The notes beneath the pieces were generated by a model. It searched no databases. It was not told where the DNA came from and was given only the letters and a program-made list of their open reading frames with translations. The translations under genes and the position numbers were made by a program. From positions 64,001 through 128,000 of the forward strand of contig CBDDDG010000001.1 of NCBI GenBank assembly GCA_965226555.1: 64,000 nt of DNA, written 5' to 3'. This DNA comes from Salinispira sp. (GTDB taxonomy: Bacteria; Spirochaetota; Spirochaetia; DSM-27196; Salinispiraceae). Position 1 is the first letter of the stretch, and the number at the start of each line of letters is the position of its first letter. Positions 16,811 through 31,441 of this stretch are shown piece by piece.

Positions 16811-18301
16811 ATGGCCATACTATATGGGATTATTGGACTTGGGCTTGTGGTCATTATTCACGAAGCGGGGCATTTTTTTGCGGCGCGCGCCTGCGGGATC
16901 GATGTTGAAGTATTTTCAGTCGGCTGGGGCAGGAAACTCATTGGGTTTAAGAAGGGAAACACGGAATACCGAATTTCAATGATTCCCCTTGGCGGCTTCG
17001 CAAAAATGAAGGGTGAATCTGCGTATAGAGATGCCATTAGCGAGGGGCACACGCGCATTCAGCCTGAGCCCCATTCTTTTTTCAGCGCAACACCTCTGCA
17101 GAGAATTTTTGTGGCGGCAGCCGGCCCGGGAATGAATCTCCTTTTTGCGGTGATATGCTTTTCAATCATTAATCTTGTTGGATATGAATATGCGAGCTTC
17201 CCAAATAAAATTATTCTCAGCGATGATTTTCCTCAATACTATACCCTGCCGACTGATGAACCGGATGCACAGGCACAGGCGGATGCGCAGGCGCAGGCGG
17301 ATGCGCAGCCTCCGACCAGCCCCGGACGCATGGGCGAGCAGGAGGCGCAGCCTCCGACCAGCCCCAGCCCTGCTGCGCGGGCGGGTCTTCGCAGCGGGGA
17401 TCATATCATTGCAGTGAACGGCATTGAAATTGAGAATTTCAACAGGCTCCAGCAGGAAATTTCTCCCCGAGCCCTCGAAGAAGTTACCCTGAGTATTGAC
17501 CGCGGCGGAACGCTGATGCAAACTACCGCATCACTCACACTCGATAATGAGAGCGGTTCAGGTATTCTTGGAGTCTTCCCCTATATTGAGCCAATCATTT
17601 CCCAACCCCAGGAGGCGCAGCCCGATGAAACCGCTTCCTTCAGTCTTCAGTCGGGCGACAAAATTGTTATGATCAACGGACAGAATGTGAATCATATCTA
17701 CGACATACAGATGGTTCTGGACAGTATTCCCCTTAGCAGAGAACAGTCATTTGTTCAGTTGAATATAGAACGGAATGGTTCACAGCGCACTATTCAGCAT
17801 CCCCTCCTGTATGAAGAGGGAGAATTTTCACTGGGTTATTATTTTCAGCAGGATACATACAAAAAACAGTCGGAGGGCCTTCTGAAAGCCATTTCCAGGG
17901 GATGGAAGGAAACAATTTCGGTACTTACGACAACCGTTAAGGGAATCGGTCTCCTTTTCAGAGGACTTGACGCTAATGCCGCATTATCGGGTCCCCTTCG
18001 TATTACCGTCCTTGTCGGAGAGGTTACCGCCCAGAGCTTACAAAGCGGAATTGCCGAGGGTCTGCGCGCCTTTTTTTATCTTCTCAGCCTTATTAGTGTT
18101 GCGCTTGCGTTTGGAAATCTCCTGCCCATACCCATTCTTGACGGCGGACAAATTCTCATATCACTTGTTGAATTATGTAAACGATCACCCGTATCTCCGA
18201 AAATGTTTCTCCGTTATCAAACTGTCGGAGTTATCATCATCATCGGACTCATTGCGTTTGTATTGTTTAATGACCTGCTGTTCATTTTAGGCAGGGCATG
18301 A
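16811..18301 (+). CDS. rseP: RIP metalloprotease RseP
   Basis: HEAGH, PDZ domains, NLLPIPILDGG. Confidence 0.97.
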   Translation: MAILYGIIGLGLVVIIHEAGHFFAARACGIDVEVFSVGWGRKLIGFKKGNTEYRISMIPLGGFAKMKGESAYRDAISEGHTRIQPEPHSFFSATPLQRIFVAAAGPGMNLLFAVICFSIINLVGYEYASFPNKIILSDDFPQYYTLPTDEPDAQAQADAQAQADAQPPTSPGRMGEQEAQPPTSPSPAARAGLRSGDHIIAVNGIEIENFNRLQQEISPRALEEVTLSIDRGGTLMQTTASLTLDNESGSGILGVFPYIEPIISQPQEAQPDETASFSLQSGDKIVMINGQNVNHIYDIQMVLDSIPLSREQSFVQLNIERNGSQRTIQHPLLYEEGEFSLGYYFQQDTYKKQSEGLLKAISRGWKETISVLTTTVKGIGLLFRGLDANAALSGPLRITVLVGEVTAQSLQSGIAEGLRAFFYLLSLISVALAFGNLLPIPILDGGQILISLVELCKRSPVSPKMFLRYQTVGVIIIIGLIAFVLFNDLLFILGRA

Positions 18302-21877: not shown

Positions 21878-22330
21878 TTATTCTCCTTCCTTCAGGACGC
21901 TCACTGCGAGAATAGCTTCTTCATCATTATACAGATGAATGGTGATATTATAGTTTCCAAGATATTTCAGCGTATGCCCCGGAATATCAATTTTTTTCCG
22001 TTCAACAGTAATGTCTCTGGCTTCGAGGGCATCAATAATCATGTGCGCAGTTACGGCTCCGAAGAGTTTACCCTTATCTCCCGCGGGCATACGAAATTCA
22101 AGGGGAGTATCGGCAATACGCTCTTTTACCGAAAGTGCCTGTCGGCGCTTTTCTTCCTTATTCTTTGCGATGAGATTTTTTCTGCTTTCGAAAAAAGACA
22201 GATTTGCCTTATTGTACATGGAGACCAGTTTCTTCGGCAGGAGATAGTTACGCGCATAGCCTGCGGATACTTCAAGAATATCCCCCTCCTCACCAAGCTC
22301 TGCAATATCAGTGTTCAGGATCACTTTCAT
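21878..22330 (-). CDS. rplI: 50S ribosomal protein L9
   Basis: MKVIL...GYARNYLLPK, GKLFGAVT. Confidence 0.98.
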   Translation of the reverse strand: MKVILNTDIAELGEEGDILEVSAGYARNYLLPKKLVSMYNKANLSFFESRKNLIAKNKEEKRRQALSVKERIADTPLEFRMPAGDKGKLFGAVTAHMIIDALEARDITVERKKIDIPGHTLKYLGNYNITIHLYNDEEAILAVSVLKEGE

Positions 22331-23217
22331 ATTTTTTCCTCGTGTGTATTTTTATTCAATTGTGGAATCCAGATTGATGCAATACCTAAAATAACTAGCC
22401 CTAGGATAAAGATTGCATTTACTCCGGGCACCAAAATAGCCAATATCAGCAATGCTGGTATAAAGGGTTTTTTCCCCAATAAACCGGCCAGAATACCAAA
22501 ACCTTTAAGGAAGTATAGCAGGGCAGCAAAAAGAAAACAATTCCACCCAATGTAGGAAAGGGGAATAATGGTAAGAATTTCTCCTGCCATGAGTACTATT
22601 GCAGATACAATAAATACCCATATGAACCATTCTGGAAAGTTGAGGCGAATCCGCAGTAATGATGATACACCGCTGCCCAATGCTCGTCCAAGTCCGTATC
22701 CGAGAATGAGAGACAGGGTTGAGCTGAGTACGATTGCGCGCAGGGCCAGATCGAATATGAAGTTGATCTGCTGTTCAAGACCCTGACGCGGTACGATTGC
22801 TGCAAAAAGTTCTTCAATTTCTGGACTTCCTTCCAGCGCGGAGATGATGCCTGTGATCAGCGTATCCCGTCCAGTAATGCCTAATACCAGTATCGTGCCA
22901 AGGGTACAGAAAAGAGATGCAATGATAAGCCTCTTCCACCCTTCGTTGAACTGAAGCATATTAAGCGCAGCAAGTCCCGCAAGCAGCCCGAGGGGAATGA
23001 GTATCTCCTGTCCAATACCCCGAAAAACGGAAAGAAGCAGGCCAGTGCACAGGGAAATGACAGAACTCAGCAGAAATTCCTGTCGTCCATACTTCGACCA
23101 TGTGAATTGAAGAGGCGCAAGGTAGAAAATACTCAGTGAGTACATGAACAATCCGCTGAAAACTCCGGCAATTACGGTGGGAATACATATGCGGGGGGGT
23201 GGAATCTCAATTTTCAT
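22327..23217 (-). CDS. YybS/DUF2232-like membrane protein
   Basis: Multi-TM protein at the usual position between rpsR and rplI. Confidence 0.7.
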   Translation of the reverse strand: MKIEIPPPRICIPTVIAGVFSGLFMYSLSIFYLAPLQFTWSKYGRQEFLLSSVISLCTGLLLSVFRGIGQEILIPLGLLAGLAALNMLQFNEGWKRLIIASLFCTLGTILVLGITGRDTLITGIISALEGSPEIEELFAAIVPRQGLEQQINFIFDLALRAIVLSSTLSLILGYGLGRALGSGVSSLLRIRLNFPEWFIWVFIVSAIVLMAGEILTIIPLSYIGWNCFLFAALLYFLKGFGILAGLLGKKPFIPALLILAILVPGVNAIFILGLVILGIASIWIPQLNKNTHEEKI

Positions 23218-23221
23218 AATC

Positions 23222-25072
23222 TCAGCCCATTGGCAGGAGGCCAAGGTAACGTGCCCGCTTTATTTCTCTTACCAGAAGGCGCTGATTCTTTGCTGAGGTT
23301 CCGGTATTTCTCCGGGCAAGGATGCGTCCCTTTTCGGTAACGAATCGGCGGAGTATATCCGGCTGTTTATAGTTGATAGTAAGGTTCTGTGTTTTGATCC
23401 TATCGACTTTTTTCTTGAAAAAAAGCTTTCCGGTTCTGCGCTTCATTGGTCGGCGCATGTCACGGTCGTTGTTTTCGACGCTGGTAGTGTCTCTGTTGGC
23501 CGGGGATTTGCCTTTGTCGGGCGGAGTAGTGTCAGCCTTTTCCTGCTTGGGTGCTTCCTGCTTGGGCGCTTCCTGTTTAGGTGCTTCCTGTTTAGGTGCT
23601 TCCTGCTTGGGCGCTTCCTGCTTGGGCGCTTCCTGCTTTGGCGCTTCTTGCTGAGGCGTTTCCTGCTTGGGCGCTTCCTGCTTGGGTGCTTCCTGCTTGG
23701 GCGCTTCTTGCTTGGGCGCTTCCTGCTGAGGCGCTTCTTGCTTGGGTGCTTCCTGCTTCGGTGTTTCTTGCTTTGGCGTTTCCTGCTTGGGTGCTTCCTG
23801 CTTGGGCGCTTCCTGCTTGGGCGCTTCTTGCTGAGGCGTTTCCTGCTTGGGCGCTTCCCGCTTCTTAGGTACTACCTTCTTCTTTGGTGTTTCTTGCTTG
23901 GGCGTTTCCTGCTGAGGCGTTTCTTGCTTTGGCGCTTCTTGCTTGGGCGCTTCCCGCTTGGGTGTTTCTTGCTTGGGCGCTTCCCGCTTTGGCGTTTCCT
24001 GCTTCGGTGTTTCTGGCTTTGGCGCTTCTTGCTTCGGTGTTTCTGGCTTTGGCGCTTCTTGCTTCGGTGCTTCCTGTTTAGGTGCTTCCTGCTTGGGTGT
24101 TTCTTGCTTGGGCGCTTCCTGTTTAGGTGCTTCCTGCTTGGGCGTTTCTGGCTTAGGCGCTTCCCGCTTCTTAGGTACTACCTTCTTCTTTGGTGTTTCT
24201 GGCTTTGGCGTTTCCTGCTTGGGCGCTTCTTGCTTGGGCGCTTCCTGTTTAGGTGCTTCCTGCTTGGGCGCTTCCTGTTTGGGTGCTTCCTGCTTGGGCG
24301 GAGTGCTGTCTTTGTCGGGCGGAGTAGTGTCAGCCTTTTCCTGCTTGGGTGCTTCCTGCTGAGGCGCTTCTTGCTTTGGTGTTTCTTGCTTGGGTGCTTC
24401 CTGCTGAGGCGCTTCCTGTTTAGGTACTACCTTCTTCTTTGGTGCTTCTTGCTTGGGCGTTTCCTGCTTGGGTGCTTCTTGCTGAGGCGTTTCCTGCTTG
24501 GGTACTACCTTCTTCTTTGGTGTTTCTTGCTTGGGCGCTTCCCGCTTGGGCGCTTCCCGCTTGGGTGTTTCTGGCTTAGGCGCTTCCTGTTTAGGTGCTT
24601 CCTGCTGAGGCGCCTCCTGTTTAGGTGCTTCCTGCTTGGGCGCTTCTTGCTTGGGCGCTTCCTGTTTAGGTGCTTCCTGCTTGGGCGCTTCCTGCTTTGG
24701 CGCTTCTTGCTGAGGCGCTTCCTGCTTGGGCGCTTCCCGCTTCTTAGGTACTACCTTCTTCTTTGGTGCTTCCTGCTTGGGCGCTTCCTGCTTGGGTGCT
24801 TCCCGCTTGGGCGTTTCCTGCTGAGGCGTTTCCTGCTTTGGCGCTTCCTGCTTGGGCGTTTCCTGCTTGGGCGCTTCTTGCTTGGGCGCTTCCTGTTTAG
24901 GTGCTTCCTGCTTGGGCGCTTCCTGCTTTGGCGCTTCTTGCTGAGGCGCTTCCTGCTTGGGCGTTTCCTGCTTGGGCGTTTCCCGCTTGGGCGTTTCCTG
25001 CTGAGGCGTTTCCTGCTTGGGTGTTTCTGGCTTTGGCGTTTCCTGCTTAGGTATGTCTGGTTTTTCGTTCAT
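23222..25072 (-). CDS. rpsR: 30S ribosomal protein S18 with a very long N-terminal PKQE(A/T) repeat extension
   Basis: C-terminal S18 domain ([44 protein letters not shown]); position between ssb and rplI; GGAGG 5 nt before ATG 25072. Confidence 0.92.
23540..25050 (-). repeat. 15-bp coding tandem repeat (~1.5 kb)
   Basis: tcctgcttgggcgct variants in tandem, punctuated by recurrent KKKVVPK and KADTTPPDK blocks. Confidence 0.95.
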
Positions 25073-25083
25073 ATGATCCTCCA

Positions 25084-25548
25084 TTAAAAGGGAATATCGT
25101 CATCAAAACTGCTGTCAAATGATTCTGGTGATTCTGGCGCAGCAGTACTTCCATTGCCGGTATTGGCATTTGTTTGTTGATGTGCGCGTTGATCGTTTCG
25201 TTGATCGTTTCGAGAAGAACCGCCGATGAGTTGAATATCGTTTACAAAAATTTCAACCCTGCTGCGGTTCTGTGATGTCTGCTTATCCTGCCAGCGATTC
25301 TGCTGAAGCGTTCCCTGAAGTGCAACCTGCTTTCCTTTCAGCAGATAACGCTGAAGAGCGTCGGCTCTGCGCCCCAGCATAACGGCATCGAAGAAATGGC
25401 TTTCTTCAACCCATTGGTCGCCGTCTTTTCTGCTTTGCGTATTCGCAATGGAAAAACGGACAATTGCGGTTCCTGATGCGCTGTATTTTGCTTCCGAATC
25501 GCGGGTAAGGCGGCCGATAATTAATACGGAATTAATGTCTGTTACCAT
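25084..25548 (-). CDS. ssb: Single-stranded DNA-binding protein
   Basis: [14 protein letters not shown]-terminal DDDIPF. Confidence 0.98.
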
Positions 25549-25559
25549 AAGTTTCTCCT

Positions 25560-25841
25560 TTATTCGTTGCAGCGGATTACAAGAATGCGGATTAAATTCT
25601 CAATGAGAGCGACATTCTTTTCAATTTGATGAGCCTTGTCAGGCTCCATGGTAAATTTGAATACAAGATAGTGTGCATCAAGCTGATTTTTTATGGGATA
25701 GGACAGCATCCGAACACCCATGTCATGTTCCGAGATTGATTCTGCCCCCAGTTCTGTAATGTGGGAAAGAATCTCTTTTTTGCCGCTGGTGAACAGATCT
25801 TCTTCAGACCTGAATACACAGGCTGCTTCATAGGTTCGCAT
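25560..25841 (-). CDS. rpsF: 30S ribosomal protein S6
   Basis: MRTYE...GVRMLSYPIK; GGAGG RBS before ATG 25841. Confidence 0.96.
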   Translation of the reverse strand: MRTYEAACVFRSEEDLFTSGKKEILSHITELGAESISEHDMGVRMLSYPIKNQLDAHYLVFKFTMEPDKAHQIEKNVALIENLIRILVIRCNE

Positions 25842-26005
25842 GTTTCCTCCTTGCGGACCAATCGGCGAAGCTTCAGACCTCACCGAAATTGACTATCCTG
25901 TATCCATCCTCTTTTCAGGTCAGGAACAGCCAGAATAGTAAAGAGACAGGAATATCATCCTGCAATATATATCGTGTATTGAATGATTATTACACAATAA
26001 GAATC

Positions 26006-26053: not shown

Positions 26054-26170
26054 TGGGAAATAAACACGGATGGAAACAGTGAACAGCAGTATCACATATT
26101 CTCAGTATCATCGCAAGTCTCGGAAGTATCAGGCTGCGGCTGCGATGTATGATTGGCGATTTAATATCAT
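26054..26170 (+). mobile_element. Internally deleted remnant of the IS at 1335-2586
   Basis: 26072-26158 nearly identical to the transposase 5' end; tgggaaataaac and ttaatatc resemble the two IS termini. Confidence 0.8.
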
Positions 26171-28495: not shown

Positions 28496-29305
28496 TCAAT
28501 CATCATCACTACCGCCGCCCAACTCCAACTGAGGCACCGACTGAACGGCATTCCCTGCAATGCCCTTATTCAGAACAAGTAGGTGCCGAGCTTCGCGCAG
28601 AAAGGGTACTTCAAGGGGGAGGAGCTGGTGCCCCTGTGGGAGCGGGCCGCCGAAATTTTCAAGAATTGTATTTTTGCGCCCTGTGTATGCGGCTATCCAG
28701 CCGCCGGAGTTCAGCAGGCGCATCTGTAGCCGACATTGTTCGGGGGTGAAGGGGCGGAAGGCGCGGGATGTTACTACATCGAAGCGCCGTTCGGCGAGGT
28801 CTTCAGCGCGCTGTTCATGTATGTGTACCATGTTTTTCAGTCCGAGGATTGGGATGATGTTATGCAGGAATGCGCATCGCCTACGCTGCTTTTCAATGAG
28901 GTGCATGCGAAATTCCGCGCGGGTGCCGACTTCTGGGGGGGCGCCGGCTTTCGCGCTGTCGCGAAATTCTGGGGAGGCGCCGGCTTCTGTGGAGGCGCCG
29001 GCTTCCATATGGTCGCGGAATGTCAGCGCGAGTACAATGCCCGGGAGACCTGCCCCGCTCCCTAAGTCGGCAACGGAAATCTTCCTGCGGATATTCAGAA
29101 GATCGCCGAACCAGAAAAAGGCTGCTGCTGAATCGAGAATGTGCCTGACCACAAGCTCTCTTTCCGTGGCTTTTACAAGTCCGGCGCGGGAATTCCAGAG
29201 CAGAATTTCATCAATGTAACGTTTGAGAGATATGAACAGCGAGTCCGAGTATAGAGCGAGTTGGCGAAGTCCATGTGCGAGCAGGCGCTCATTGTTCTGA
29301 GTCAT
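28496..29305 (-). CDS. rsmG: 16S rRNA m7G527 methyltransferase
   Basis: RHILDS, DLGSGAGLPG, VTSRAF; downstream of mnmG. Confidence 0.95.
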   Translation of the reverse strand: MTQNNERLLAHGLRQLALYSDSLFISLKRYIDEILLWNSRAGLVKATERELVVRHILDSAAAFFWFGDLLNIRRKISVADLGSGAGLPGIVLALTFRDHMEAGASTEAGASPEFRDSAKAGAPPEVGTRAEFRMHLIEKQRRRCAFLHNIIPILGLKNMVHIHEQRAEDLAERRFDVVTSRAFRPFTPEQCRLQMRLLNSGGWIAAYTGRKNTILENFGGPLPQGHQLLPLEVPFLREARHLLVLNKGIAGNAVQSVPQLELGGGSDDD

Positions 29306-29380: not shown

Positions 29381-31441
29381 TTATATTTCAAGTGTAGTGG
29401 TATTGAGCATGGATTCGCTCAGTTTTTTCTGAGATGGGCTCTGATCGGCGCGGCGGGCTGCTGCAACCATAAGAATGGCAAGGTCGGAGCTGCGGACGCC
29501 GCTGATGCGCCCCGCCTGCCCTATTGAAAGGGGGCGAATGTTCTTGAATTTTTCACGGGCCTCATTGGACAAGCCCCGTACTCCATCATAATTGAAGCTC
29601 TGAGGAATTTTCATATTCTCCATCTTGGTAAAGCGGAGAATCTGTTCTTCCTGCCGAGCGACATAGCCTTCGTATTTTATATCAATTTCAACTTGGCGGA
29701 GCCATTCAAGGGGATGGTCACTGAGGAGATCAGGATCAATCTGCATAAGATTTTCAATGGATACGGTCGGATTTTTCAATATCTGCATAAATGTTTTTCC
29801 CGGAAGCCGAGCGGAATTGCCGGTGGGCGGTCTGGCAGAATGGCGCGGGGTGGAAATGCTCATGGCCGACTGCGCTCTGTCGAGTTCATGCGCCGAGAGG
29901 CGGCGGTGGGCGAGGAGTTCCTTAATTGCCGCTATGCCCTGTTGCTTGTCTCTGAATTGTTGCCAGGCGGCAGCGCTGTGCAATCCGATATCCCGCCCGC
30001 GGGCGTACAGGCGCATGTCTGAGGAATCGTGGCGGAGGCTGATGCGATGTTCCGCGCGTGAAGTGAACATTCGGTAGGGTTCCTTTGTGCCAAGGGTTAC
30101 CAAATCGTCTATGAGTACGCCGATGTAGGCCTCTGCCCGTGAGAGGATGAGAGGGTCGCGTCCTCTCAGGCTCAAGGCGGCGTTAATACCTGCCATAAGC
30201 CCCTGGGCGGCGGCTTCTTCATATCCGCTTGTTCCGTTTGTCTGCCCGGCAATGTACAGGCCCCGGCAGAGTTTTGCCTCAAGACTGGGATACAGCTGGC
30301 TCGGATCAATATGGTCGTATTCAACTGCATAGCCCGGGCGCATGATGACGGCATGCTCCAGTCCGGGGATGCTGTGAATAAAATGTTCCTGAACATCCTC
30401 CGGGAGCGATGTGGAAATACCGTTCAGGTACATCTCCTTTGTTTCAAGTCCTTCCGGTTCTACAAAAATCTGATGACGTTCCCGCTGGGGAAATTTTACG
30501 ACCTTATCTTCTATGGACGGACAGTAACGCGGGCCGACTCCTTCTATGGCGCCGGAAAAAAGGGGCGAGCGGTGCATGTTTTCGTTAATGATTCGATGTG
30601 TTTCAGGAGTTGTGAAGGTGATGTAACAGGGCTCATTCGGGCGGTTGGGCCGTTCACGGGTGAAGGAGAAGGGGAGCATTTCATCGTCTCCAAACTGCGG
30701 CTGCATTTTGCCAAGGTCGAGGCTGTCGCGGTGAACCCGGGCGGGGGTGCCGGTTTTCATGCGGCCCATGCGGAAGCCGAGCCCGCAGAGGGTGCTTTCC
30801 AGACCCCGTGCGGCAGGTTCGCCAATGCGCCCCGCGCTCGCGCTGAACTCCCCAATGTGAATTTTACCGTTCAGGAAGGTTCCTGTTGTAAGTACGACCC
30901 GGGATGCGCTCATGCGCCGGCCCCGTTCGGTTATAACTCCGCGGATCGCGCTCCCATCAACATCCTGCTTGCTCCCGCCCGCATTCTGTCCATCAGCATC
31001 CTGCTTGCTCCCGCCCGCATTCTGTCCATCAGCATTCTGTCCGTCTGAATCCAGCAGAAAGTCGATGACCGTATCCTGAAAAAGCTGAAGATTTTTCTCG
31101 TTTTCCAGCGTTTTTTTCGCTTCTATCTGGTAGCGCATTTTGTCGGCCTGCGCCCGCGGCGCCTGCACCGAAGGTCCCTTGCGCCGGTTGAGCACCCGAT
31201 ACTGAATCATGGTCTTGTCGATGAGCCTGCCCATTTCTCCGCCAAGAGCATCAATTTCCCTGACCATATTGCCCTTCGCGAGTCCGCCAACGGCAGGGTT
31301 GCACGATAATTTTCCAATGCAGTCGAGGTTCATGGTAATGAGAAGGGTGCGGAAGCCCAGCCGTGCCGAAGCAAGCGAGGCTTCAATGCCCGCGTGACCG
31401 CCGCCGACAACAATAATGTCAAAATCAGTATTCATCTTCAT
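29381..31441 (-). CDS. mnmG: tRNA uridine-5-carboxymethylaminomethyl modification enzyme
   Basis: [42 protein letters not shown]. Confidence 0.99.

Follow-up and report, generated by a model that had tools for sequence, protein, structure and literature searches.

The sole S18 gene of a Salinispira genome carries an in-frame array of 97 short repeats that probably encodes a disordered tail

The S18 gene, its core and its start of translation

The window, i.e., the whole stretch of 64,000 nucleotides that was analysed, contains an rpsR gene in which a long array of short repeats precedes the region for ribosomal protein S18. This raises the question whether a bacterial ribosome carries an S18 of about six times the usual size, and whether such a tail is needed or only tolerated. 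The gene is a single stop-free frame of 620 codons (23222-25084, minus strand), and the gene order on that strand is rpsF, ssb, rpsR, a 305-aa hydrophobic ORF, rplI and dnaB (Table 1). The S18 domain PF01084 was found at aa 567-617 with 72.8 bits (cut-off 21), and TIGR00165 matched with a score of 62.6 (cut-off 38.75). The assembly (2.98 Mb, 26 contigs, 93.5% complete) yielded one S18 match only. A second, short S18 was not detected by tblastn in the assembly (next hit E=0.54). The rpsF-ssb-rpsR...rplI order and the single copy are those of a bS18 gene, and by every criterion that could be tested the rpsR product is a true bS18.

The best named matches were records of Spirochaetaceae and Spirochaetales, and the core was 61-79% identical to that of 25 relatives. 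In an alignment of 26 sequences all 31 invariant columns were kept, while five of ten near-invariant core positions were altered (K558R, D567N, K583R, P586A and I589N, numbering of a 616-aa product). In a tree the branch of the core had a length of 0.41, compared with a median of 0.059. AlphaFold2, which was given 26 sequences of which all other rows span the core only, placed three helices at 571-610, with pLDDT values of 87-92 over residues 571-616, and no secondary structure before residue 571. Together with 21 S18 sequences of the PDB that matched at E<=1e-12, the helices predict the small helical fold of S18. The basic end of the linker (aa 525-551) matches an R/G-rich segment of spirochete S18. 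Rfam searches at gathering thresholds gave zero matches in the window, and a metagenome scan revealed no near relative of the rpsR locus among the 80 loci kept of 88.

Table 1. Features of the rpsR locus (positions in the window).
Feature	Position	Strand	Remarks
rpsF (bS6)	25560..25883	-	PF01250; normal length; opens the cluster
ssb	25084..25548	-	PF00436; 5' of rpsR; its stop codon and ATG 25084 overlap
Shine-Dalgarno motif GGAGG	25078..25082	-	5 nt 5' of ATG 25072; duplex -9.3 kcal/mol
rpsR, likely 616-aa bS18	23222..25072	-	sole S18 gene of the assembly
In-frame repeat array, 97 units	23513..25051	-	aa 12-524; tandem repeat search and parse into units
Non-repeat linker, aa 525-551	23432..23512	-	basic 3' end; ATGs without Shine-Dalgarno motif at 23458 and 23446
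S18 core, aa 552-620	23222..23431	-	conserved, cysteine-free; PF01084, TIGR00165
Hydrophobic ORF, 305 aa, between rpsR and rplI	22327..23244	-	without Pfam match
rplI (bL9), tail-less	21878..22330	-	PF01281, PF03948

An earlier note on this DNA had described an open frame that runs into S18 from an ATG with a GGAGG just after ssb. The open frame stood, but the GGAGG serves another start codon. No Shine-Dalgarno (SD) motif lies upstream of the ATG at 25084; the GGAGG falls within the first codons of its frame and precedes a second ATG at 25072. The best duplexes with the anti-SD of the genome's own 16S rRNA had energies of -0.5 kcal/mol at 25084, -9.3 at 25072, -0.3 at Met543 and -3.7 at Met547, and 248 internal ATGs used as a control had a median of -3.1 kcal/mol, with 4% reaching -8. 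The note's statement that the internal Met lacks an SD is thus in line with these values. Of 16 ribosomal-operon genes used as controls, four scored weakly (-3.8 to -4.8 kcal/mol; one control start was probably miscalled), so that a start may also occur behind a weak SD. An in-frame GTG or TTG start was not found in the rpsR frame, and relatives have an SD and a start at the matching spot after ssb. Because the GGAGG sits before ATG 25072, translation likely starts there and the product likely has 616 aa and about 70 kDa.

The repeat array and its reading frame

The array comprises 1,539 bp (codons 12-524) and could be parsed without gaps into 97 units with 35 distinct DNA versions. Pentapeptides of the type P-(K/Q)-(Q/R/P)-E-(A/T) make up 87 units (44 PKQEA, 19 PKQET, nine PQQEA, six PKPET, five PKREA, three PQQET and one PKRET); the others are five PKKKVV, three PKKREA and two KADTTPPDK blocks. 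TRF reported a period of 15 and 98.6 copies. Six residues account for 94% of aa 1-524 (21% P, 20% K, 18% E, 17% Q, 12% A, 6.5% T), aromatic residues are absent and the net charge is +11; the tail is predicted to be disordered and near-neutral. The extension had been put at about 540 aa, which is too long: the repeat proper has 513 aa, and the excess over S18 of the same family is about 520 aa. The low-complexity run of S18 (521 aa) is the longest among the 2,743 ORFs of the genome. Further copies of the repeat were not found in the genome by blastn, nor did any other of its ORFs have three or more such units.

The array was traced in public sequencing runs; among the runs listed as containing it, none was of RNA. 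Its 31-mers are mostly distinct (1,218 of 1,510) and its longest exact internal repeat has 104 bp, so that it cannot collapse much. In run X1, 43 of 49 contigs were at least 99% alike and all 30 bins had depth. Two internal pieces (23868-24029 and 24331-24530) had depths of 7.9 and 7.7, flanks 7.8 and 9.1, with zero mismatches. Runs X1-X3 represent one sample, maybe the source of the assembly, and thus check the assembly rather than provide independence. Runs X4 and X5, from a second study, contain a strain with 52 differences in about 1,900 bases of flanking sequence (2.7%, a sum made by hand). X4/X5 contigs extend beyond the core and into the array by 77 nt, in frame as judged by reading, and the units there are PKKREA (or a variant), a 10-residue stretch and PKQQEK, in a different order. 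The vocabulary of PKKREA, KKVV and KADTT is also present in this strain. On the core side the differences listed are one synonymous and one in the linker, and two more exist; an X5 contig spans the start region up to 25051, and the differences listed there (three of four) are all in ssb. Both array ends were seen, and no contig of the public runs spans the whole array; X4/X5 leave most of its interior uncovered and say nothing on the length there.

Variation among the units was mostly synonymous. Among the 87 pentamer units seven of nine possible synonymous changes were observed, but only four of 36 non-synonymous ones (Fisher p=2.2e-4); with transitions alone the counts were five of five and two of ten (p=0.007). 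All five third codon positions were variable, compared with three of the ten other positions. Because the units share descent, the Fisher test overstates their independence and the p-values are optimistic. The five other reading frames gave p=0.11-0.87, and the antisense frame that shares the codon phase gave p=0.035 with transitions alone. Pairwise pS was 0.57 and pN 0.079, and pN/pS was 0.14 over all pairs and 0.25 over distinct units, so that the units are not free of constraint at the protein level, as those of a neutral repeat would be. The S18 array was among the five lowest pN/pS values of 33 in-frame short-period arrays, 18 of which had 0.54 or less, and it ranks alongside repeat-domain families. 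The mostly synonymous variation indicates that the tail is translated under constraint. We infer that the array is read in the rpsR frame under selection on its amino acids; with an internal start such selection would be absent.

That the array expanded stepwise, as the earlier note had proposed, is backed by the five KKKVVPK and two KADTTPPDK copies, by the synonymous excess and by the different order of units in the related strain. Taken together, the sequence data support an N-terminal tail that is putatively translated, disordered and grown by stepwise expansion.

S18 tails in other spirochetes and the genomic background

A comparison of S18 lengths among relatives, which had been named as a check, came out in favour of an unusual extension. 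S18 was matched in 29 of 31 genomes, and five open frames of the same family have only 98-105 aa. Within the order S18 reaches up to 207 aa, with R/G/D-rich tails. In the Spirochaetia S18 was matched in 248 of 251 genomes, and among the matches listed (n=150) the open frames had a median of 112 and a maximum of 240 aa, with three of at least 200 aa; a normal length of 75-100 aa, as had been stated, therefore understates this class. Six longer spirochete S18s had 226, 248, 301, 307, 353 and 393 aa (P0001-P0006), and a further one (L255) about 243 aa. The searches for long S18s were word-based and restricted in length (30 plus 24 candidates, nothing over 1,085 aa). They did not return the plastid orf641 described below, and thus long S18s outside the spirochetes would be missed. 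In these searches the Salinispira S18 is the longest bacterial S18, 1.6 times the next longest (393 aa).

The tails of other spirochetes resemble the Salinispira tail in position, in low complexity and often in being built from short duplications, with outliers at 226-393 aa. In contrast, they typically have 20-120 aa and are R/G/D-rich, whereas the Salinispira tail consists of P/K/Q/E/A. The long ones are of the disordered type, several are built by duplication, and none is PKQEA-like. In the tree the tailed S18 fell inside a supported group (96/87) together with the five short S18s of its family. A single origin of the long tails was rejected (p-AU 0.029), and the long-tail state required five changes, at least two of them forced by strong branches; this tree was built on 74 columns, with three long branches, and its bootstrap had not settled. 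To judge from it, the long S18 tails of spirochetes arose separately. P0002, P0003 and P0004 (L235) form a supported group (99/95) with S18s of 301-393 aa and differing tails, and the genomes of two carriers of a long S18 (G031 and G032) are small, at 1.9 and 2.1 Mb.

The Salinispira genome is rich in tandem repeats. TRF yielded 909 merged arrays that cover 161.5 kb (5.4% of the genome), and the period is divisible by three in 364 of 403 arrays of at least 90 bp. Low-complexity runs of at least 50 aa occur in 186 of the 2,743 ORFs. After S18, the longest run was that of the IF2 ORF on C21 (513 aa), and the third had 188 aa. Inserts of low complexity were found in HisRS, TrpB-TrpA, galactokinase, GlnE and HsdR, and 19 other hand-picked low-complexity ORFs include several housekeeping enzymes. 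TrpB and TrpA are fused in a 742-aa ORF with a repeat-built linker of about 90 aa (L197:1-2229; G000:C1:323389-325617). The genome also contains abundant repeat proteins that, by motif, we take to be ankyrin-, TPR-, WD40- and fibronectin-like; an abundance of such proteins resembles host-associated bacteria. Both mutS and mutL are present, so that the growth of the array cannot be put down to a loss of mismatch repair. In the complete relative G004 the mutS open frame has 636 aa, compared with 853-910 aa in four others, and it is possibly a broken gene (G004:C1:1934820-1935143).

IF2 has 1,342 aa (L190:4948-8976; G000:C21:364947-368975), including a C-terminal tail of 513 aa that is built from 18-bp A/T/K/S/N repeats and has a net charge of +40. 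After the C-terminal anchor motif 550 residues follow, versus 30-55 in nine other genomes. The units of this tail varied in the opposite way to those of S18 (one of 14 synonymous and nine of 40 non-synonymous changes, pN/pS 2.84). A link of the S18 and IF2 tails across lineages was not seen, as two long-S18 genomes have an ordinary IF2 C-terminus. In one genome the IF2 open frame has 1,082 aa and a normal C-terminus (L280, G032:C1), and its extra length is likely N-terminal. A general lengthening of ribosomal proteins was likewise rejected: S2, S6 and S21 are normal, and so are the genes in the large ribosomal operon; 31 of 34 translation orthologues differed from those of G004 by no more than 35 aa, and over 246 hits among the matches listed, shadow ORFs included, the lengths had a median difference of 0.

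Short in-frame duplications were also found elsewhere in the window. The ssb gene has a 12-bp duplication (25187-25212, NDQR twice) that is present as a single copy in the X4/X5 strain, which marks it as a recent in-frame slip, judging from the two sequences. Three further ORFs, presumably rseP, rsmG and mnmG, contain in-frame short tandem duplications (17262-17308, 28907-29029 and 30954-31039, respectively). An element of about 94 bp at 26068-26161 had 27 further BLAST hits in the genome, and its translation resembles the start of a transposase-like ORF (L190:9750-10964).

Readings of the tail

The reading that we regard as probable is that S18 is made at full length, with a disordered tail that grew by slippage, is constrained in composition and is not needed. 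The N-terminus of spirochete S18, which was already variable, would have grown by replication slippage and shuffling of units. A frameshift would sever the core, so that only in-frame changes would survive, and selection would keep the tail hydrophilic and charge-balanced, while its length would not be required. As the N-terminus of S18 opens to the solvent at the platform, the core would assemble normally. bS18 sits on the 30S platform beside the anti-SD (PMC7797042; for Borrelia 10.1101/2023.04.16.537070; available parts of both), and by analogy with published bS18 structures the tail likely projects from the platform. The array beyond the basic linker, which corresponds to the mRNA-side segment of relatives, likely extends into the solvent. 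A disordered platform tail and a tolerated VNTR had been proposed as alternatives. The tail is likely both at once, and the disorder is as AlphaFold2 predicts.

That the tail is not needed is likely in view of the 98-105 aa of S18s of the same family, and because the other long tails share no motif and do not form one clade. The permissive background, with its tandem arrays, low-complexity inserts, IF2 tail and long S18 branch, favours a tolerated tail as well. However, a neutral repeat would not need a constraint as strong as the apparent one (the IF2 tail varies in the opposite way), slippage could freely shorten the array, and lengthening is not general among the translation proteins of this genome. 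Furthermore, about 520 extra residues per ribosome amount to roughly 7% of the ribosomal protein mass, taking the E. coli total.

Selection for the tail itself seems rather unlikely, but several observations argue for it. The tail would then form a long charged brush near the mRNA exit, on the 30S platform, possibly acting with the basic IF2 tail, and it would tune access to the mRNA or the anti-SD, space polysomes or disperse ribosomes. The purifying signal among the units, the PKKREA, KKVV and KADTT shared with the related strain, and the position of both longest low-complexity runs of the 2,743 ORFs on components of 30S initiation would fit, as would the repeated expansion of the S18 N-terminus in spirochetes and plastids. 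The repeats of plastid bS18c enter the platform cavity and were proposed to bind mRNA (10.64898/2026.07.03.736309, available part). However, the Salinispira array is near neutral and free of the aromatic residues that the plastid motif contains, long tails share no motif, close relatives do without a tail, two other long-S18 genomes have no C-terminal tail on IF2, and a variable terminus tolerates neutral expansion anyway. In an extended and unlikely version, the polyampholyte brush of S18 and the basic brush of IF2, each of 500 residues, would act together as a device of this lineage by which initiation is gated or ribosomes are spaced, and the S18 N-terminus would be a general growth point that several spirochete lineages and plastids used independently.

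It is distinctly unlikely that the ribosome contains a short S18, produced by cleavage of the tail after translation or by internal initiation at Met543 or Met547. From Met543, 78 aa including the whole core would be made, weak SDs do occur in the ribosomal operon, the Drosera authors raised internal starts for orf641 (PMC6747624, available part), and cleavage is compatible with all sequence evidence. However, the internal ATGs score like random internal ATGs, relatives lack a Met at both positions, the upstream SD lies at the SD position of relatives, and an internal start would release the array from the constraint on frame and codons that was observed.

Very improbable is a decaying gene, the tailed S18 being poorly incorporated into ribosomes that would work without it. 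The five altered near-invariant positions and the long branch of the core could be read in this way, bS18 was reported to be non-essential in Porphyromonas gingivalis (PMC7797042), and orf641 was listed as a pseudogene (PMC6747624), both according to the available parts of these reports. Against it stand the 31 invariant columns kept and the core fold predicted with high confidence, the differences listed for the related strain (one synonymous, one in the linker), the frame intact over 1.85 kb and the absence of a second S18 from the assembly. Least credible of all is an array inflated or misjoined during assembly, for although no contig spans it and X1-X3 come from one sample that maybe was the assembly's source, its mostly distinct 31-mers and short exact repeats, the internal pieces at flank depth without mismatch and both array ends in a second study argue against this.

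A full-length tolerated tail would show what load of disordered protein the 30S platform of a bacterium can likely bear, namely about 59 kDa on an 11-kDa protein near the anti-SD. If it is only tolerated, the tail would mark weak selection in a genome rich in repeats. It is an extreme case of a lengthening that recurs in spirochetes, and the natural series of S18s with unrelated tails (94-616 aa) is a ready set for the question of tail function. Reports of a repeat-extended bacterial S18 were not found in the main texts that were covered, mostly from open-access sources; a case from plant chloroplasts has already been published.

In the available part of that report, the plastid orf641 of Drosera rotundifolia encodes 641 aa, in which 73 GQKQPNI repeats precede an almost complete Rps18; it was confirmed by PCR, is absent from four related species and is listed as a pseudogene, other angiosperms have up to 15 repeats in rps18, and the authors considered internal starts or a pseudogene without deciding (PMC6747624). 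The likeness to the Salinispira S18 extends to about 510 aa of in-frame repeats before S18, the total length (641 vs 616 aa), the normal rps18 locus and the absence from close relatives. In contrast, orf641 is a plastid gene with 21-bp instead of 15-bp units of unrelated sequence, whereas in Salinispira a strong SD lies upstream of the likely start, the assembly has no other S18 and an excess of synonymous changes was measured. It is thus a bacterial counterpart of orf641, and its clear upstream start and lack of a spare copy make the choice between internal start, pseudogene and real tail testable.

Plastid bS18c has N-terminal heptapeptide repeats (1-7 copies, 19-55 residues) with a basic and aromatic motif that was proposed to bind mRNA; the extension projects into the platform cavity, and the N-terminus of E. 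coli S18 orders on mRNA (10.64898/2026.07.03.736309, available part). Like it, the Salinispira array is a tandem repeat in frame with the S18 core and N-terminal of it. In contrast, the array has 97 units, no aromatic residue and a nearly balanced charge, and its aromatic-free 5-aa unit, instead of the 7-aa plastid unit, makes it an analogue rather than a member. The comparison suggests that the tail works like the plastid repeats, yet is not homologous to them. Unlike coding VNTRs of surface proteins, the array lies in a core ribosomal protein. Bacterial coding VNTRs have short in-frame units, a shuffled order and differences between strains. In the X4/X5 strain, whose contigs end 77 nt into the array, the order of the units differs.
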